This document shows positions 2,658-59,582 of a stretch of DNA of 64,000 nt, in pieces. Position 1 is the first letter of the stretch; each line of letters starts with the position of its first letter. A program made the translations under genes and the position numbers. The stretch is from an uncultured Ignavibacteriales bacterium (GTDB taxonomy: Bacteria; Zixibacteria; MSB-5A5; GN15; FEB-12). Under the pieces are notes generated by a model that worked only from the letters and a program-made list of their open reading frames with translations, was not told the origin of the DNA and ran no database searches. The DNA lies in assembly GCA_964571235.1 (NCBI GenBank), contig CAZNAI010000003.1:656700-720699 (forward strand), in the 5' to 3' direction.

Positions 2658-3011
2658 GTGAGTAACTACTTGGCAGTTCTAATCTTTCTCGGAGTAGGGA
2701 CCGGAATTGTCCTGTTTACCTTCTTCCTCTCCAAGCTCCTGCGCCCCTCCAATCCGTACCCCGAAAAAACGATCAATTACGAGTGCGGCGAACTGCCGGT
2801 TGGGACATCGTGGATTCAGTTCAACCCCCGTTTTTACATATTCGCGCTCATCTTTGTGATCTTCGATGTCGAGGCGATTTTCCTTTTTCCGTGGGCGGTG
2901 GCGTTCGGCCAGCTCGGGCTGTATGCGCTGATTGAGATGATCGTGTTCATTTTGATTTTGTTCTTCGGGTATTTTTATGCGTGGAAGAAGGGGGCGATGA
3001 AGTGGGTGTAG
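2658..3011 (+). CDS. nuoA: NADH-quinone oxidoreductase subunit A
   Basis: 117 aa, 3 TM segments. Contains YECGE...FDVE, typical of NuoA/ND3. First gene of the nuo cluster. Confidence 0.9.
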
Positions 3012-3018
3012 CCAGCCG

Positions 3019-3087
3019 GAAGATGTCGAAACCTCGCCCGTCGGGCGATCACGCCTTCGTCGTGACAAGGGATTTCGACCTACAGAA
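3019..3087 (-). repeat. GTAG-type REP-like element (family D, long form) inside the nuo operon
   Basis: The minus strand reads GTAGGTCGAAATCCCTTG ... GGTTTCGACATCTTC around two inner hairpins. The same termini occur at 41880-41942. Confidence 0.75.
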
Positions 3088-3102
3088 GCCGGGGAGTCGC
3101 GC

Positions 3103-4082: not shown

Positions 4083-5182
4083 GCGCGCTCCGCACCGAAG
4101 AGTTTGTGGTCAATATGGGGCCGCACCATCCGTCGACGCACGGTGTCTGCCGCCTCCTACTGACCATGGATGGCGAGCGGGTTCTGCATATCGAGCCGTA
4201 TATCGGATATCTGCACCGCTCGATTGAAAAGATTTGCGAGAACAGAACGTACGCGCAGTGTATTCCGATTTTGGATCGGTTTGAGTATGTGACCGCGATG
4301 TCGTGCAATCATACTTTTGCGCTGGCGGTTGAAAAGTTAGCAGGTATTCAAGTTCCGGAGCGGGCGGAATATTTGCGGGTGATCATGCTCGAGTTGAACC
4401 GTATCAGTTCGCATCTGCTCTGGTATGGAACGACTGCGCTTGATTTGGGCGCGATCACGCCGTTTCTGTATGGATTCCGCGAGCGGGAACTGATCATGGA
4501 TTTGTTCGAGATGACCTGCGGCCAGCGGTTGACCTACAATTATATACGAGTCGGCGGCGTGTCGAGAGATATCCCCGAGCAGTTTGTGCCGAAATGCCGC
4601 GAGGCGGTCAAGACTATCACTGAAAAGATGGCGGACTACGAAGGTCTGCTCAATGAAAATCCGATCTGGGTAGCACGCAATAAGGGAGTGGGGGTACTCA
4701 GTTCGGAAATGGCGATAGCGTGGGGCGTTTCCGGCCCCGCGCTCCGCGCCTCCGGTGTGAAATACGACATTCGCAAGAATGATCCGTACGGGTACTACCC
4801 GAAATTCGATTTCGATATTCCGACCCGCCAAAATGGCGATTGCTACGACCGATATATTTTGCGGCTCGAAGAAATTAAGCAGTCGCTCAAGATTGTTTCG
4901 CAGGCGCTTGACGGATTACCGGCCGGAGATTTCAAAGCCAAGACACCGGGAGTGTTCAAACCGGCGGCGGGGGAAGTGTATAGCCGGATTGAAAACTCGC
5001 GGGGCGAGCTGGGTGTGTACATTTTGTCTGACGGCACCACCAAACCGGTGCGGGTAAAAACGCGCGGCGGCAGTTATAATCAACTTCAGGTTCTGCCGGA
5101 AATCGGCAAAGGTCTGCTTATCGCTGATATCGTCGCGATTATGGCCTCGATGGACATCATCATGCCGGAGGTTGACCGGTGA
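4079..5182 (+). CDS. nuoD: NADH-quinone oxidoreductase subunit D
   Basis: The ATG at 4079 overlaps the nuoC stop. Begins [23 protein letters not shown] and ends ...DIIMPEVDR. Confidence 0.93.
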   Translation: MSALRTEEFVVNMGPHHPSTHGVCRLLLTMDGERVLHIEPYIGYLHRSIEKICENRTYAQCIPILDRFEYVTAMSCNHTFALAVEKLAGIQVPERAEYLRVIMLELNRISSHLLWYGTTALDLGAITPFLYGFRERELIMDLFEMTCGQRLTYNYIRVGGVSRDIPEQFVPKCREAVKTITEKMADYEGLLNENPIWVARNKGVGVLSSEMAIAWGVSGPALRASGVKYDIRKNDPYGYYPKFDFDIPTRQNGDCYDRYILRLEEIKQSLKIVSQALDGLPAGDFKAKTPGVFKPAAGEVYSRIENSRGELGVYILSDGTTKPVRVKTRGGSYNQLQVLPEIGKGLLIADIVAIMASMDIIMPEVDR

Positions 5183-6243
5183 TTCTTCCACTGTCATTTG
5201 AACTGAGCGCCGTTTTTGATTGGCTCGGCGAGCTACTGGCGTCGCTGGGACTCCCACCGATCTGGCAGACAATCGTTTCGTATGTCCTGCTCGGCGCAAT
5301 GATGTTCGGGGTGCTGGCGCTACTTGCGCTCTTTTTGGTTTGGTGGGAGAGAAAAATCTCGGCACATATTCAGCAGAGATTCGGGCCGATGCGCCACGGC
5401 TGGCACGGTTGGTATCAGACGATTATGGATGCGATCAAGTTGTTGCAGAAAGAAGATATTCTCGTTGTCACGCGCGACCGGGTGGTCTTTTTCTGGGCGC
5501 CGGTGCTCTGCTTTGTGGCGGCGTTTTTGGCCTATGTCGCGATGCCGTTCGGGAACGGACTGATTGTCGCGGATTTGAATGTCGGCATACTGTACATAAT
5601 CGCGGTGACAACGTTTACCATTATCTCACTACTCATGGCCGGGTGGGGATCGAATAATAAGTATGCGTTACTCGGCGGGATTCGTTCGGCGGCACAGGTG
5701 GTATCGTACGAAGTTCCAATGGTGGCTTCTATCCTGACCGCTGTGCTTTTTGCCGGGTCGCTTTCGATGGTGGAGATTATCAAGTCGCAGGAAGGGCACG
5801 GGATTTTCAACTGGCTGATATTCAGGCCGCCGTTTGGGATGATCGCCTTTGTGACGTATATCATTGCGGCGACAGCGGAGGCCAACCGGACGCCGTTTGA
5901 TATTCCCGAAGCCGAGCAGGAATTGGTTGCCGGATACAATGTCGAATATTCCGGGATGAAGTTCGCGATGTTTTTCCTGGCTGAATTTGTCAATATGTTC
6001 ACGGTGTCCGCGATTGCGACCACGCTCTTTTTGGGCGGCGGAAACGGACCGCTTCTGCCGTCGTGGATTTGGTTCATGGGCAAGACACTGGTAGTGATTT
6101 TTCTTCTAATGGTGATTCGCTGGACGATGCCGCGATTGCGGGTTGACCAATTGATGGAGTTCGCCTGGAAGTTCTTAGTGCCGGTCACCTTTGCGAATCT
6201 GATGATTGCCGGCATATTCAAATTTGCGGGATGGTACTGGTAA
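5179..6243 (+). CDS. nuoH: NADH-quinone oxidoreductase subunit H
   Basis: 354 aa, polytopic. ND1-like sequence WERKISAHIQQRFGP. It directly follows nuoD, so nuoE/F/G are not between them. Confidence 0.93.
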   Translation: MILPLSFELSAVFDWLGELLASLGLPPIWQTIVSYVLLGAMMFGVLALLALFLVWWERKISAHIQQRFGPMRHGWHGWYQTIMDAIKLLQKEDILVVTRDRVVFFWAPVLCFVAAFLAYVAMPFGNGLIVADLNVGILYIIAVTTFTIISLLMAGWGSNNKYALLGGIRSAAQVVSYEVPMVASILTAVLFAGSLSMVEIIKSQEGHGIFNWLIFRPPFGMIAFVTYIIAATAEANRTPFDIPEAEQELVAGYNVEYSGMKFAMFFLAEFVNMFTVSAIATTLFLGGGNGPLLPSWIWFMGKTLVVIFLLMVIRWTMPRLRVDQLMEFAWKFLVPVTFANLMIAGIFKFAGWYW

Positions 6244-16310: not shown

Positions 16311-16325
16311 AATCCAACGCAAGAG

Positions 16326-16429
16326 GGCAAATTGAGCGCGGCGGACAGGAATGTCCGCCACGCACAAATACTCCGATGGGTGATAGAGCGAAATTTGAGC
16401 GCGGCGGACAAGAATGTCCGCCTCGCACA
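16326..16429. repeat. two direct copies of the RAYT-cognate hairpin (63-nt period)
   Basis: aaattgagcgcggcggacaggaatgtccgccacgcaca at 16328-16366. aaatttgagcgcggcggacaagaatgtccgcctcgcaca at 16391-16429. Confidence 0.85.
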
Positions 16430-16592
16430 TGCAGTCCGCACTTTCTCATCCCGTCGCAGGCGGTGGGGCACCCGGCAGGATCGGTCGCAACCGCCAAATT
16501 CTGTTCAGCCGTTACACATACCCCAAGTCCAGTGGCGATACGGAGTTAGGGACGCGCCCGCTCGGACAGTTTCGCGCTTTGCATTTAAGGCG

Positions 16593-36232: not shown

Positions 36233-36679
36233 TCACTTCGGTTTTACTATCGGTGAATTGAGCGGGGCTCCCACGGCTATGTCACACCGATGGTTTGGCT
36301 GTCCGTGCGGTGGATTCATCCCCGGAGCAGTCGTGGTATTGGCCGTCTGGGCAGGGATATTCTGTTGCGGCGAATTTGGTAGCGCTTGTACAGTCCCCGG
36401 CGGTGAACTGAGCGGCGCTCCCACGGCTATATCACAACGATGGTTTGGCTGTCCGTGCGGTGGATTCATGCCCGGCGCGGTAGCTGATTCGACGGCAGTT
36501 TCATAAGGATTCATCACAGGGGAGGGCTGAACCGCAAGTGACTCAGACGATGCGGGGGCAGACTGTGTCATGCCGGCGTCGGACTCTGAACCCTTGCTCG
36601 CAGGGGTATCCGATGATTCCTTGCAGGCCATCGCAAAGACCATTAAGAGAATGAGAATCGTCAGGCTCATGCGCTTCAC
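36233..36679 (-). CDS. lipoprotein with duplicated NPPHGQPNHRCDIAVGAPL motif
   Basis: The GTG at 36679 lies 6 nt after AGGAGG. Lipobox in MKRMSLTILILLMVFAMAC. Two near-identical ~74-nt segments at 36252-36325 and 36402-36475. Confidence 0.7.
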   Translation of the reverse strand: MKRMSLTILILLMVFAMACKESSDTPASKGSESDAGMTQSAPASSESLAVQPSPVMNPYETAVESATAPGMNPPHGQPNHRCDIAVGAPLSSPPGTVQALPNSPQQNIPAQTANTTTAPGMNPPHGQPNHRCDIAVGAPLNSPIVKPK

Positions 36680-41859: not shown

Positions 41860-41879
41860 AGAGGATATTGAGCTCTGTT

Positions 41880-41942
41880 GTAGGTCGAAATCCCTTGCCG
41901 CGACAGCGGTCCCGCCAACGGCGGGATGTTTCGACATCTTCC
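41880..41942 (+). repeat. GTAG-type REP-like element (family D, long form)
   Basis: GTAGGTCGAAATCCCTTG ... TGTTTCGACATCTTC. Its termini match the element at 3019-3087, but the inner hairpins differ. Confidence 0.75.
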
Positions 41943-41948
41943 TCAATT

Positions 41949-41998
41949 TCAAATTGACTTCATGTCCAAACTGACTTCATGTCAAAATTGACTTCAGG
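41949..41998 (+). repeat. 17-nt tandem repeat x3
   Basis: tcaaattgacttcatg / tccaaactgacttcatg / tcaaaattgacttcagg. Confidence 0.8.
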
Positions 41999-42017
41999 CT
42001 GAGCCTGTCGAAGCCAC

Positions 42018-42320
42018 GTAGGTCGGGTTGCCAGCCCCGTTTACGGGGCGCAGCTACCCGACAATGTCGCGAGGCAAAGCATAGTAGGTCGGGTTGGCAA
42101 GTTACCCGCGTGAGCGGGGAACGCAGGCTACCCGACACTTTCTAAAACCGCAGATGTCGGGTAGACAAATCGTGTCGTCTCCGACGATTCGATTTGCCAA
42201 CCCGACCAACGAAGACTCGTCGTGGTGTCGGGCGTCCTCACCCGACACCGATTGCGGTCAGGTGGGGACGCCTGACCGCACGATATCGAATACGGCAGGA
42301 GCACAGGGCTCCTGCCCTAC
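42018..42320. repeat. BIME-like cluster of at least six REP-type hairpin units
   Basis: Family C units at 42018-42063, 42084-42137 and 42153-42210 (inverted). Short hairpin at 42224-42249. Family A hairpin at 42255-42279. GTAGGGCAGGAGCC hairpin at 42294-42320 (minus strand). Confidence 0.8.
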
Positions 42321-45044: not shown

Positions 45045-45740
45045 ATGCTCACGCTCATCCTCGGCCTTGGCAATATCGGTAAGAAGTACGACAAGACGCG
45101 GCACAATCTCGGGTTTGAGGTTGTCGATCGGGTGGTGGAGAAGTTGGGGGCAGTGCGGCAGGAGGATGGGGAGTGTTATCAGTGGTGGAAGGGGGAGGTG
45201 GAGAGCCAAGACGAGGAGGGATTGCTTCGTCGCGCCGTCCTTCGACAGGCTCAGGATGACGGCGCTCCTCGCAATGACCAGCCAGATGGCTGGACCGAGG
45301 GGCTTCGCCGCTCACGATCTGTCTACTTTGCAAAACCCACCACCTATATGAATGGGTCGGGGGAGGCGGCGAAAGAGCTCATGGAGCAGTTGGGAATCAC
45401 GCCCGCTGAAATACTTGTGATCGTCGACGACTTTCAGATCCCGCTTGGCGCTGTCAGGTTTCGGCCGAATGGCTCGGATGGTGGCCACAATGGCCTCGTG
45501 TCGGTCATCGAAGAGCTTGGGACGCAAGCGTTTCCACGACTTCGGCTGGGGATCGGATTACCCCAAGACAAGGCCCAGGTAATCGATTATGTCCTCACTA
45601 AGTTCAACGCTGACGAAAAGCCCACCGTCGAGAAGATGCTTGCCATTGCCGGCGAAGGAGTTATATTTGCCCTCCAACATCGCCTGGAAAAGGTGATGTC
45701 GAAATACAACTTTAACCCTGCTCCACCGGACCTCGCTTGA
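45045..45740 (+). CDS. pth: peptidyl-tRNA hydrolase carrying an in-frame repeat-derived insertion
   Basis: MLTLILGLGNIGKKYDKTRHNLGF ... KPTTYMNGSGEA ... DGGHNGL. About 32 extra codons at 45219-45312 match the intergenic repeat modules. Confidence 0.85.
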   Translation: MLTLILGLGNIGKKYDKTRHNLGFEVVDRVVEKLGAVRQEDGECYQWWKGEVESQDEEGLLRRAVLRQAQDDGAPRNDQPDGWTEGLRRSRSVYFAKPTTYMNGSGEAAKELMEQLGITPAEILVIVDDFQIPLGAVRFRPNGSDGGHNGLVSVIEELGTQAFPRLRLGIGLPQDKAQVIDYVLTKFNADEKPTVEKMLAIAGEGVIFALQHRLEKVMSKYNFNPAPPDLA

Positions 45741-46313: not shown

Positions 46314-46372
46314 TTCGTTGAATCGCGTCTCGACTACGCTCGACGCGTCGCACCCATGATGGTGTATGGAAT

Positions 46373-46410
46373 GAAGATGTCGAAACCGCAGGGGTTTCGA
46401 CCTACAGAAG
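46373..46410 (-). repeat. family D REP (short form)
   Basis: gaagatgtcgaaaccgcaggggtttcgacctacagaag. Further copies at 57966 and 58442. Confidence 0.75.
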
Positions 46411-46423
46411 ACAAAGAGTGAAA

Positions 46424-53563: not shown

Positions 53564-53767
53564 ACGCCCTTCGACTCCGCTCAGGGCGACGTTCCGATCA
53601 GCGCAACATCAGGTTGGTATGCGAGTACGCTTTGGCAACCATGTTTTTCTCGTGTGCTGGGAAACTGAATAGTGTCAAACAGCACATTCGATGGGCGCGT
53701 TAGCGTCGGGCTGAGCGGAGTCGAAGCCCGTTCTCATTGGCGTCAGGCCAGGAGGCCTGACGCCACG
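53564..53767. repeat. MITE-like element (family E) plus family A hairpin
   Basis: Left arm 53564-53602 and right arm 53687-53735 contain a 16-bp perfect inverted repeat, cttcgactccgctcag/ctgagcggagtcgaag. Hairpin ggcgtcaggccaggaggcctgacgcc lies at 53738-53767. Confidence 0.8.
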
Positions 53768-56065: not shown

Positions 56066-56290
56066 TACATATGTAAGGTACCAACGGGGGGTGGTATTTG
56101 CAAGCAAAAAACTCGATCTATGCCGTTGGGGGACAGCCATTTGCGGCGATGTGATCGGGGTGTTTTTGGGGTATTTTGCGATAGGCGAAATCGCTACGCG
56201 AGAAAGTCATTCCGGTTTGAAAAAGAGAGGGAATAGTGGATATTGGGGGAGAGGATGTGGAATGAAAACGAAAGCTGGAAAAATGCTCTT

Positions 56291-57049
56291 ATGAAATATT
56301 CAGCGGCAATAGCTCTCTGCCTTTGTGGCGCTTTGATTGCGATTTCGCCGGGGTCAATTCGAGCTGCGGATCGCTCTAGGTTAGAGTTCATTAAACCAAA
56401 CGTTGTCGATTCAGCGTGGCTCTGGAGCCATGTGTACTACACACAGAGTCCACTCCAAAAGGGAAAATATCAGATACTAGTGCGGAACTACGAAGAATCG
56501 AAAAGGTTTCTTCCGATTTGGGAGGAGTCCTTTATGCGTCTGAATCTATGGTCTCAATCTTATTTCGATAAACACATTCGCATCCTAACCGCCGGGATTG
56601 ACACCGCTAAGTGGGAAGGTCGAAACGAGCTACGATTCACTATAAGCTACGATTATGTCTTTGATTGGGTAAGACTTCGTTGTGTGGATCGGTTTGTTGT
56701 AGGCGTTGACTCTGCACTAACTACCTTGAAGGTTGAGGACATTGTTAATTCGTCAGGGCCAGGCATGCTAGTTGATGCCAACTTCAGTCGGCCCGTACTT
56801 ATCACTCGCGTACGACCATCAACAACGATTGCGTCTCGCAAGGCAATAGAAGGTGCACTCAAGCGAAATTGCTCGAATGAGAAAACAACTTTCAAAGCTA
56901 CGCTGTCGATTCTTCAAGATGGGTCGGACATAGTTGCGAGCATGAGGTCGGACGATTCCATTAAACCACTATGTGCTGAGTACCTGCTTTTCGACAAAAA
57001 ATATTCAGGTTTGAGCGAATGCCCTGAGGAAACAGTCATCTTTGAATAA
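56291..57049 (+). CDS. hypothetical secreted protein
   Basis: ORF 56243..57049. The ATG at 56291 gives signal peptide MKYSAAIALCLCGALIAISPGSIRA. No family recognised. Confidence 0.5.
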   Translation: MKYSAAIALCLCGALIAISPGSIRAADRSRLEFIKPNVVDSAWLWSHVYYTQSPLQKGKYQILVRNYEESKRFLPIWEESFMRLNLWSQSYFDKHIRILTAGIDTAKWEGRNELRFTISYDYVFDWVRLRCVDRFVVGVDSALTTLKVEDIVNSSGPGMLVDANFSRPVLITRVRPSTTIASRKAIEGALKRNCSNEKTTFKATLSILQDGSDIVASMRSDDSIKPLCAEYLLFDKKYSGLSECPEETVIFE

Positions 57050-57056
57050 GAATACT

Positions 57057-57164
57057 TGGGACGGGCGCGATGATCAGGGGCGCGAGGTGGCCAGCGGGGT
57101 GTATCTGTATCGCCTGACCGCAGGCGGCGTGACGCAAGAGAAGAAGATGGTGTTGGTGCGGTAG
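57057..57164 (+). pseudogene. orphan C-terminal FlgD-Ig/T9SS-type sorting-domain fragment
   Basis: Translates to WDGRDDQGREVASGVYLYRLTAGGVTQEKKMVLVR then a stop. An in-frame stop lies immediately upstream and there is no start codon. Confidence 0.6.
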
Positions 57165-57201
57165 CCAGCCATATGGCTGGACCTTGGGGCTTCGCCGCTT
57201 T
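57161..57201 (+). repeat. GTAG plus 16-nt perfect palindrome (family H)
   Basis: GTAGCCAGCCATATGGCTGGaccttggggcttcgccgct. A near-identical module sits inside pth at 45278-45312. Confidence 0.75.
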
Positions 57202-57408
57202 GTATTCAGAGTAAGTGCGTCATTGGATACGGGTTGATGATCCAAGGCGTCGTGTCTCGTCTCCGCTCGACACGACGGTGGAGGGGGAGACGATTGGTAG
57301 ACGGTTGCCATACGCTGTATTCGCTCGGATACTGAAAGATGATTTTCCTCTTAACAATGTCAAACCCATGTTGAGATTGATCGCTTGGTCACTAATCGAA
57401 ACGGCCTT

Positions 57409-57491
57409 CTTCGTCGCCTCGAGCGGAGTCGAGAGGAGACGCGGTGGATATCAGTCAGACACGCCGTGTCTCGTCTCCGCTCGACACGACG
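57409..57491 (+). repeat. family F repeat, left copy flanking the GIY-YIG gene
   Basis: ttcgtcgcctcgagcggagtcgagagg...cgtgtctcgtctccgctcgacacgacg. A partial third copy lies at 57246-57280. Confidence 0.85.
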
Positions 57492-57546
57492 AATAAACGG
57501 AATGTGATTTAATCAACAGCGCCCTAGACACTATGTTTATGACCTC

Positions 57547-57849
57547 GTGAACCCATGCGTTTACACACTCCGTTGTGCTGATAACAGTCTGTACACAGGC
57601 GCAACGAGCAAATTGGATCGCCGACTTGTGCAACATGCGTCAGGCGAGGTAAAGGGATTTACTTCTTCTCGACTCCCCATCGTTCTTGTGTTCATGGCGC
57701 ACTTCCCGACCATGTATGAGGCTGGTGTCGCGGAAAAAAAAGTGAAACGCTGGTCACGAGCGAAGAAGGAAGCACTGATTCGCGGCGACGAGAAGGCATT
57801 ACACGAACTTGCTTCGTGCAAAAACTCATCGCATTTCTCGAAAAAGTAG
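57547..57849 (+). CDS. GIY-YIG nuclease family protein (UPF0213-like)
   Basis: 100 aa: VYTLRCADNSLYTGATSKLDRRLVQHASG ... EKKVKRWSRAKKEALI. Confidence 0.85.
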   Translation: MNPCVYTLRCADNSLYTGATSKLDRRLVQHASGEVKGFTSSRLPIVLVFMAHFPTMYEAGVAEKKVKRWSRAKKEALIRGDEKALHELASCKNSSHFSKK

Positions 57850-57866
57850 AATCTCATGGCCCGCTT

Positions 57867-57948
57867 TTCGTCGCCTCGAGCGGAGTCGAGAGGTGACGCG
57901 CCGGATATCAGTCAAACACGCTGTGTCTCGTCTCCGCTCGACACGACG
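57867..57948 (+). repeat. family F repeat, right copy flanking the GIY-YIG gene
   Basis: Same orientation as 57409-57491, with about five mismatches by eye over ~82 nt. Confidence 0.85.
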
Positions 57949-57965
57949 GTGAACGAGCAACAGAG

Positions 57966-57999
57966 CATGTCGAACCCGCAGGGGTTTCGATTTACAAAG
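57966..57999 (-). repeat. family D REP (short form)
   Basis: catgtcgaacccgcaggggtttcgatttacaaag. Confidence 0.7.
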
Positions 58000-58441
58000 A
58001 CTGGTCTCTGAACCGGGACAATGGAAGTGGTCGAATTGTGGATGGTACGAGGGAAGAAGAGATGGACCACGGGAAATTGACGCGATTGAGATTTGAGGGT
58101 AGCGGTCGGATTAAGGGATCCCACAGCAAGCTGTGGGGCACCGAAGAGAACCAATGCGCGAATGCCTATCAATTTTCATACAAATCTCATGTAGTCAACG
58201 AATCGGCAAGTTCTGGTATGAAGACCTCGATACACAACTCGCCTATGTTACGAAATCCTGCCGTGCAATTTTACTACAAGATCTATGCGACGACGTCACA
58301 ATCCCGAAAATACCCGAATCATCACAACCGCCACTGCAATAACCAATTGCGATCAAAGAAAACAATTCGTGAAATGCAAAAGTGTACAAACGAAGCCAAA
58401 AAGAAACCCACCATAATTGGTGATCCACATAGAAAAAGAAA

Positions 58442-58475
58442 AGTGTCGAAACCGCAGGGGTATAGACCTACAAAG
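58442..58475 (-). repeat. family D REP (short form, degenerate)
   Basis: agtgtcgaaaccgcaggggtatagacctacaaag. Confidence 0.7.
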
Positions 58476-58496
58476 GAGAGCTACACAAACAAAGAG

Positions 58497-58751
58497 ACGC
58501 CCTTCGACTCCGCTCAGGGCGACGTTCCGATCAGCTCGACCGTGGTTAGCGCGTGGGTGCAGTTCTGCTACTCTTCGTTCGGTAGTAGCATCGACGAAAG
58601 GCCTTCGTCAAATCAAGAATTGGATGAGCGCGTCAGCGTCGGGCTGAGCGGAGTCGAAGCCCGTTTCTCTTGATCATCATGTTACAAAAAAAGCGTCAGG
58701 TGGGGGCACCTGACGCCACGTATACGACCCTTCGACAGGCTCAGGGTGAAG
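58497..58751. repeat. MITE-like element (family E), family A hairpin and G module
   Basis: Left arm 58497-58535 (38-39 nt identical to 53564-53602). Right arm 58620-58669. Hairpin gcgtcaggtgggggcacctgacgc at 58693-58720. cccttcgacaggctcagggtgaag at 58728-58751. Confidence 0.8.
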
Positions 58752-58772
58752 TCAAATTTGTTCGACGCGTTA

Positions 58773-59582
58773 TTACGATTTACGCGTGATGCGGCCGTGG
58801 CCGGAGACACTGCGGTTGACATCGGCCGGGCTACCCCAATAGCGGATATCGCCGGAGCCGCTGACCGAACCGTCGATGGAATTCTCTGCCCAGCAGTCGA
58901 CATTTCCGGAGCCACTTATGTCGGCAATGACATCTTTGCATTTCAGTTCGCGGGCGTCGACATACCCCGAGCCGGGGATCTCAACCGACATCTCGCCGCA
59001 TGTGCCGGCAAGGGTAATGTCGCCGGAGCCGGAGACTTCAAGATCAACTCGCTCGGCCGCCAATCCGGTGAACTCGGCGTCGCCGGAACCGCCGACTGTC
59101 ACGCGCAAGTCGCGCACCGAGCCGTCACACCTAACATCAGCCGAGCCGGAGATATCCAATGTGAAATCTTCGCCGGTGAGTTTAGACAGTATGATGCTAC
59201 CGGAACCGTCGATGGCCAGTTCGGTCAGTTTTGGAACTGTCATTACGATTTTGACATCTTGGTGAGTGGAAAATGATCCTTTGGTATCGATCTCAAGCGT
59301 TCGGCCGCGCACGCGGGTGGAAATCAAATCGACCAGATTGTCATCGCAAGTGAGCGATAGTTTGTAGGTCGGGCCGACCGTGATATCCAGATCGGCGCCG
59401 ATGGAGAGCTCGATCCGGTCGAAACCGACGACCTGGCGATCGATTGTAGTAGGTACGCCGGAGCCACGCACTCCGCGCGAGTTGCCAAAGAATGACCAGC
59501 GGTCTTTAGCGACCGACGATGTAACTCCGCTAAGCACCAAAATGGCGGCGATAGCGATTGTGCCGAATAGTAAGCGGCGCAT
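58773..59582 (-). CDS. DUF2807 (head-GIN/adhesin-head-like beta-helix) protein
   Basis: 269 aa with a signal peptide. Repeated GSG[DN][IV] rungs, for example GSGSIIL, GSADVRC, GSGDAEF, GSGDITL, GSGYVDA and GSGNVDC. Confidence 0.75.
   Translation of the reverse strand: MRRLLFGTIAIAAILVLSGVTSSVAKDRWSFFGNSRGVRGSGVPTTIDRQVVGFDRIELSIGADLDITVGPTYKLSLTCDDNLVDLISTRVRGRTLEIDTKGSFSTHQDVKIVMTVPKLTELAIDGSGSIILSKLTGEDFTLDISGSADVRCDGSVRDLRVTVGGSGDAEFTGLAAERVDLEVSGSGDITLAGTCGEMSVEIPGSGYVDARELKCKDVIADISGSGNVDCWAENSIDGSVSGSGDIRYWGSPADVNRSVSGHGRITRKS

Follow-up and report, generated by a model that had tools for sequence, protein, structure and literature searches.

Introduction

The described system closest in kind to the locus reported here is that of SsnA of Neisseria, a 94-aa single-domain GIY-YIG protein of the CDD family cd10448 (Chenal et al., Nat Commun 2025, PMC11893778). 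SsnA binds the NTS hairpin repeat (CGTCATTCCCGCGMAVGCGGGAATCYRG) as ssDNA only and cuts a few nucleotides upstream of it, and cutting requires three nucleotides 5' of the palindrome. The stem of NTS is conserved and its loop sequence is dispensable for SsnA. SsnA restricts transformation by DNA that is flanked with NTS, and it neither interacts with RNA nor acts on it (PMC11893778). The characterised Ssn proteins do not cut dsDNA, and a Wolbachia homologue has been characterised as well. Ssn homologues in many phyla are bracketed by "Ssn-related motifs" (SRM), with the published consensus HGTCWYN(0-2)YYVSBRHN(0-5)WNVSBRGN(0-2)RNCYNB. According to the same authors, the NTS-ssnA-NTS layout is IS-like and parallel to REP/RAYT (PMC11893778).

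Here we describe a small GIY-YIG gene between hairpin repeats in a 64-kb stretch of bacterial DNA, referred to as the window. We suggest that this locus is probably an Ssn-type pair of a nuclease and its cognate repeats. Such a system was already published in 2025. The present locus is a distinct variant of it, which we did not find described in the literature searched: queries that combined GIY-YIG with REP, RAYT or hairpin repeats, or that used the loop sequences, returned nothing relevant but PMC11893778.

Results

A GIY-YIG gene with hairpin repeats on both sides

The gene and the repeat units beside it are as follows.

57547-57849, + strand: GIY-YIG nuclease gene, 100 aa, GTG start, single-domain, ORF intact
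57410-57491, + strand: upstream F unit, an inward-facing doublet of a (+) hairpin at 57417-57436 and a (-) hairpin at 57465-57488
57867-57948, + strand: downstream F unit, a 94% copy of the upstream one, with a (+) hairpin at 57874-57893 and a (-) hairpin at 57923-57944
57248-57277, - strand: solo hairpin (within the half copy 57241-57280), core as in the F right arm, 9-bp stem

The protein matches the Pfam family GIY-YIG (PF01541) with an E value of 1.2e-14, over profile positions 2-76 of 78 and residues 3-74. Across 14 homologues, Y6, Y16, G18, H30 and E63 are invariant and R26 is nearly so. The AF2 model (pLDDT 87) predicts a GIY-YIG fold with confidence. Foldseek ranks the UPF0213 structures 1zg2 and 1ywl as the top two matches to this model and the Slx1 nuclease domain next, while the structural similarity to 1ln0 is weak (E > 1). 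In a phmmer search of solved structures, 1zg2 (BH0048, 46% identity) was found with E 1.4e-13 and 1ywl (EF2693) with E 5e-9. Both are UPF0213 proteins, and they are the sole solved sequence relatives of the window protein. Searches of NCBIfam, PADLOC and PHROGs with the window protein assigned no family. The subfamily to which it belongs carries the signature GFTSxRLP ... KRWSRAKKEALIRGD, whose KRWSRAKKEALIRGD motif is common to the close homologues and marks the subfamily. Clustered at 50% identity, the core of the subfamily counts about 151 clusters (E <= 1e-30), within about 7,700 related ones (E <= 1e-10).

The surroundings of the gene are chromosomal and intergenic, beside gyrB and dciA. 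The public (NCBI-derived) gene call for 57547-57849, P0002, is 99% identical to the window protein, has 73 aa from an internal GTG start and does not include the GIY motif. Among the homologues whose DNA could be retrieved, the closest (L081/P0001, 72% protein identity) has an ATG at the exact position of the GTG at 57547. Thus, the longer 100-aa reading is supported over the 73-aa call.

An earlier note on this DNA had described direct repeats of about 82 nt with some five differences around the gene, at distances of 55 and 17 nt. This description is accurate: the two F copies are 82 nt long and 94% identical with five mismatches, and they lie 55 nt from the gene on the upstream side and 17 nt on the downstream side. 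All five mismatches fall in the spacer that separates the two hairpin cores. Each F unit is an imperfect inverted repeat with arms CGTCGCCTCGAGCGGAGTCGAGA and TCTCGTCTCCGCTCGACACGACG, which are 86-87% complementary and 34 nt apart, and it folds with -49.6 kcal/mol (z = -5.7 against shuffles). The two hairpin modules that had been proposed for each repeat are seen as an inverted pair of small hairpins, and the half copy that the note had placed at 57246-57280 is present at 57241-57280. The order of hairpins around the gene is (-), then (+)(-), gene, (+)(-), and the outermost bracket pair is inward-facing. Hairpin-forming inverted repeats of 20-50 nt, by which Ssn/SRM-type loci are judged, are present on both sides of the gene. 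At the F units, a promoter and terminator scan gave no signal, with no U-tract or terminator call. Rfam gave nothing meaningful for the whole window at gathering thresholds or for 57000-58800 under permissive settings, where the matches were miRNA-like noise with E > 4.

One hairpin design with a conserved loop and a free stem

All arms are covered by one design, which reads on the GAGC strand as a 5' box, a stem and a conserved loop. The box is short and unpaired, CGTCG in this genome and (G/T)TC(G/A) generally. The loop is GAGC-N2-4-G(T/A)CGA, 11-12 nt long. The stem has 4-8 bp in general and 4-9 bp in the window, where its sequence varies by copy (CCTC/GAGG, CGTGTC/GACACG, CGCCCT/AGGGCG, CGGGCT/AGCCCG, CGCGTC/GACGCG). 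There are 13 hairpins of this design in the 64 kb, at five separate sites, and none in the reversed-sequence control. Five of the 13 surround the GIY-YIG gene, and the rest are mostly in intergenic gaps. In addition to those given above, they are:

58498-58521, - strand: family E hairpin, CGTCG box, stem CGCCCT, loop GAGCGGAGTCGA
58640-58663, + strand: family E hairpin, partner of 58498-58521; 118-nt spacer unconserved, arms conserved
58727-58747, - strand: hairpin of the same design, loop GAGCCTGTCGA, 11 nt
53565-53588, - strand: dispersed family E hairpin, intergenic, 3' of gyrB
53707-53730, + strand: dispersed family E hairpin, partner of 53565-53588
46324-46347, - strand: dispersed solo hairpin, stem CGCGTC, loop GAGCGTAGTCGA
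45238-45256, - strand: dispersed solo hairpin, loop GAGCCTGTCGA; overlaps long mechanical ORFs, so that its intergenic status is uncertain
41997-42015, + strand: dispersed solo hairpin, loop GAGCCTGTCGA, intergenic

The octamer GAGCGGAG, which the earlier note had taken for the core of the family E arms, is indeed the core of all four (53565-53588, 53707-53730, 58498-58521 and 58640-58663). The window has 14 copies of it where 2.3 are expected, and not one of 100 shuffles had as many.

The region 57.05-58.77 kb is a mosaic of several repeat families. A separate hairpin family, TGTCGAAACCGCAGGGGTTTCGACCTACA, is found at 46378-46411, 57968-58001, 58444-58477, 3059-3097 and 41879-41904. Its copies tend to stand 45-55 nt from a GAGC-loop hairpin, and this spacing suggests composite, BIME-like mosaic units. 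The repeat GTCAGGCGGGGACGCCTGAC(G/A)CCACG occurs at 874-899, 42257-42282, 53742-53767 and 58695-58720. Since one copy of it (58717-58692, - strand) has a T-run and is scored as an intrinsic terminator, this family may be shared terminators. The stretch 57042-57164 encodes a 40-aa fragment that is similar to a C-terminal sorting domain of type IX secretion (weak CHU_C and FlgD_ig matches) and is not in frame with the upstream ORF 56243-57049. Next, at 57165-57199, comes a palindrome beginning CCAGCCATATGGCTGG, which recurs at 45278-45312 with 91% identity. The stretch 57042-57199 could be a frameshifted gene end or a 3' module common to paralogous secreted proteins. Two further pairs of direct repeats, 36251-36331 / 36401-36481 (81 nt, 91% identity) and 16322-16375 / 16385-16438 (54 nt, 83% identity), are unrelated to the hairpin family.

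Association of the gene with the hairpin across homologues

A scan of GTDB with one genome per species gave 542 relatives, and the best 80 of the 542 loci were fetched. The best match to the window protein among the GTDB representatives has 61% identity. The best 80 loci come from Alpha- and Betaproteobacteria, Bacteroidota, Ignavibacteria, Chloroflexota, Planctomycetota, Zixibacteriota, KSB1, Marinimicrobiota and CPR Peribacteria, with at least eight phyla represented. Per kb, these loci have 2.52 hairpins in the 250 nt next to the gene and 0.053 in their remaining sequence, a 47-fold enrichment. A hairpin stands near the gene in 43 of the 80, on both sides in 23. When long-loop forms are counted too, the number rises to 51, so that 29 to 37 of the best 80 loci are without a detectable hairpin near the gene. 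The earlier note had named paralogues without flanking F repeats, together with F repeats spread independently of the genes, as evidence against a link. The homologues do not bear this out, since roughly half of them carry the repeats, and solo repeats at other places are expected in such a system.

Matches to the loop alone that lie near the gene are enclosed by a stem of at least 4 bp in 80% of cases, against 1.6% in a reversed-sequence control. Thus, the stem is genuine and covarying and does not result from the way of searching. When 147 hairpins are anchored on the loop, a conserved 5' box emerges, with T at position -7 in 83% of them, C at -6 in 84% and G or A at -5 in 91%; most often, positions -6 to -8 are unpaired. 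In the best 80 loci the motif is found in either orientation both upstream (29 (+) and 19 (-)) and downstream (23 (+) and 28 (-)) of the gene. In Chloroflexi and Planctomycetes there are long-loop hairpins, in which 20-60 nt, often with an inner stem, lie between GAGCG and AGTCGA; the order is an outer stem of 5-9 bp, GAGCG, the insert, AGTCGA and the closing stem. Such forms are found within 250 nt of the gene in seven loci (L001, L005, L010, L021, L028, L031 and L050). They show that the conserved bases sit at the junction of stem and loop.

The association can also be approached from the repeat. A metagenome search with an 18-mer of the F right arm gave 57 loci, and nine of the 57 have a GIY-YIG gene of the window subfamily within 400 nt; many of the 57 lie within coding sequence and match by chance. 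No exact copy of the 26-nt F right arm was found in the metagenomes. In L081, F arms are present on both sides of the gene and are identical to those of the window at 32/32 and 28/29 nt, while the coding sequence and the F spacer have diverged. The copies of family E likewise keep their arms and not their spacers. Solo hairpins are more numerous than gene-linked ones and contain no gene remnants. Within a genome, solo and gene-proximal hairpins share their loop in 20 of 33 cases, where permutation predicts 5.1.

In Sphingopyxis and relatives (P0011, P0014, P0027, P0035), and also in P0068, the C-terminal tails of the annotated proteins are translated downstream hairpin repeats (SSEVE...VSTSLDTNG; TPRSSHGVT), and the protein lengths are inflated by read-through or mis-called stops. 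For annotation this means that read-through into hairpin repeats explains spurious ORFs and C-terminal "tails".

Pairing of each subfamily with its own hairpin

The published SRM consensus (PMC11893778) matches neither the window nor any sequence up to 200 nt from the gene in the best 80 loci. At 26 Ssn-type loci from IMG/VR it matches 25 times at up to 250 nt from the gene and six times elsewhere. These matches are often the exact Neisseria NTS, and hairpins of the window design are absent from the 26 loci. Thus, with SRM only at Ssn-type genes and the GAGC-loop hairpin only at window-type genes, the pairing is subfamily-specific in both directions.

The window protein and an SRM-flanked Ssn-type protein share about 33% identity. 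With their own HMM, window-type proteins reach 223 bits, and with the Ssn-type HMM 44 bits; on the window-type HMM, BH0048 scores 89, EF2693 70 and YhbQ 49 bits, and Ssn-type proteins score 58 on average. Taking identity and HMM scores as proxies, we place the window protein probably outside cd10448. An alphaproteobacterial locus (L058) carries an Ssn-type gene at 2766-3050 (-) and a window-type gene at 5001-5258 (+), 2 kb apart. The Ssn-type gene has flanking hairpins, one of which matches the SRM consensus. The two subfamilies can thus coexist. The family of the Ssn-type gene of L058, to which the 26 IMG/VR loci belong, has 6412 matches, a Wolbachia protein included.

Discussion

A functional link between the nuclease and the repeats, which the earlier note had raised as a possibility, is well supported by these sequence comparisons. 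It draws on the 47-fold enrichment, on the 43 of the best 80 loci with a hairpin near the gene, on the nine of 57 repeat-seeded hits, on the conservation of the arms and on the Ssn precedent. We suggest a resident GIY-YIG gene that is bracketed by inward-facing copies of an intergenically dispersed hairpin. By analogy with SsnA and NTS, the protein likely binds the hairpin in single-stranded DNA, which arises in replication, repair, transformation or conjugation. It would then cleave the motif-bearing strand a few nucleotides 5' of the hairpin, as SsnA does. The GTC box and the GAGC/GTCGA loop or junction would determine specificity, and not the sequence of the stem; the logic of recognition appears to be inverted relative to NTS. 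As a consequence, incoming or replicating ssDNA could be restricted or modulated, and the repeats could possibly be maintained or spread as in REPIN-RAYT. For the window subfamily we infer the ssDNA specificity, the cut position and the biological consequence from the Ssn analogy. Since the identity to Ssn-type proteins is about 33% and UPF0213 is closer, the activity could differ, for example as structure-specific cleavage in the manner of Slx1.

The earlier note had also raised the idea of a mobile cassette and of homing. In such a model, the nuclease would cut empty F sites, F-gene-F would be copied in by repair with the F repeats as homology arms, and the gene would hop between repeat copies. 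The 82-nt direct repeats could act as such arms and the outer hairpins form an inverted, TIR-like bracket, an IS-like architecture of the sort noted by the Ssn authors (PMC11893778). The occurrence of the subfamily in at least eight phyla at a flat 50-60% identity is likewise compatible with (occasional) horizontal transfer. However, the copy number speaks against it. The note had called small GIY-YIG proteins often multicopy, but the 64-kb window holds no second GIY-YIG gene and just one genome gives two loci among the best 80 of 542. Furthermore, ten Sphingomonadales loci from several genera occupy the same yqeY-dnaG gap. One of the genes at this gap is yqeY-like, the neighbouring genes have diverged to about 70% identity, and the fixed gap despite this divergence points to a long residence of the cassette, which looks like a resident, vertically inherited gene. 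Solo hairpins without gene remnants outnumber the gene-linked ones, and the protein has just one domain, of 100 aa, and none of the DNA-binding domains that homing endonucleases have. Relatives of the window type are absent from the viral contigs of IMG/VR and from PHROGs, and the characterised Ssn relatives do not cut dsDNA (PMC11893778). We therefore regard homing as unlikely, and the mobile cassette of the earlier note is not supported.

If the hairpins acted at the RNA level, be it as terminators, attenuators, processing sites or an sRNA regulating the GIY-YIG gene, one would expect the units to fold stably as RNA and to lie in the gene's 5' and 3' untranslated regions, and both are seen. 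Against this, the motif is found in both orientations on both sides of the gene, so that the transcript would often carry the complement of the conserved loop. The lack of a U-tract or terminator call at the F units, the lack of an Rfam family match and the inactivity of SsnA towards RNA (PMC11893778) point the same way and, with the two orientations, argue for a role at the level of DNA rather than RNA. An RNA-level role is thus quite improbable. Even less probable is a mere coincidence, in which REP-like elements were inserted around a small gene in a repeat-rich intergenic region with no functional relation to it. Such a reading could appeal to the multi-family mosaic at 57.05-58.77 kb and to the hairpins of the window design that lie far from the gene, but it does not account for the enrichment across the best 80 independent loci or for the near-perfect arms beside a diverged gene in L081. 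Reciprocal recovery of the gene in a repeat-only search, the 47-fold enrichment and the subfamily-specific pairing practically refute it.

If the pairing of nuclease and hairpin is functional, the Ssn concept would be widened beyond one clade and one consensus, with small GIY-YIG nucleases each having a hairpin of their own. There would be a candidate function for part of the uncharacterised UPF0213-like proteins, and a hypothesis for the origin or maintenance of a hairpin family found from Alphaproteobacteria to Chloroflexi and CPR bacteria. The loop-reading, stem-free specificity would be new for an ssDNA nuclease, with a possible use in programmable ssDNA cutting. More tentatively, at odds that we put slightly short of even, the window-type proteins and the hairpins with the GAGC-N-GTCGA loop may form a second, undescribed nuclease-repeat pair parallel to Ssn-SRM, with a conserved loop or junction and a free stem, in at least eight phyla including CPR bacteria. 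If this is true, one of the most widespread bacterial families of intergenic hairpins would be accounted for. It would also suggest that hairpin-directed ssDNA cleavage is ancestral in the small UPF0213/Ssn/Slx1-like GIY-YIG nucleases.

Comparison with known systems

Homing endonucleases of the I-TevI type share the GIY-YIG catalytic core with the window protein, but the latter has no DNA-binding domain, no intron or phage context and no PHROG match, and it resembles them weakly in structure (1ln0, E > 1). In sequence and fold, the closest relatives are UPF0213/YhbQ (COG2827) and eukaryotic Slx1. Slx1 cleaves branched and hairpin DNA in a structure-selective way. The window subfamily differs from UPF0213 in having its own signature. 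In addition, E. coli yhbQ is packed tightly between yhbP and yhbS, and this packing leaves no room for flanking repeat units.

The likeness to REP/REPIN-RAYT systems is in the organisation. In both there is a nuclease gene, usually single-copy and vertically inherited, flanked by hairpin repeats that populate the genome, and the repeats often form inverted doublets and mosaic clusters with a short oriented box 5' of the hairpin. The enzymes are different: RAYT is an HUH/Y1 protein like the TnpA of IS200/IS605, whereas the window enzyme is a GIY-YIG hydrolytic nuclease. Since it is not an HUH/Y1 transposase, covalent strand-transfer chemistry is not expected.

With Ssn/SRM the locus shares a single-domain GIY-YIG protein of about 95-100 aa that is found in many phyla, and a hairpin bracket that is (+) upstream and (-) downstream. 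It also shares repeats that are dispersed in intergenic DNA, and a GTC-containing box 5' of the hairpin that gives it an orientation. The differences are that the window protein is nearer to UPF0213/Slx1, that the published SRM consensus has no match here and that the hairpin is built the other way round. NTS has a conserved stem and a dispensable loop, whereas the window hairpin has a free stem and a conserved loop of 11-12 nt.
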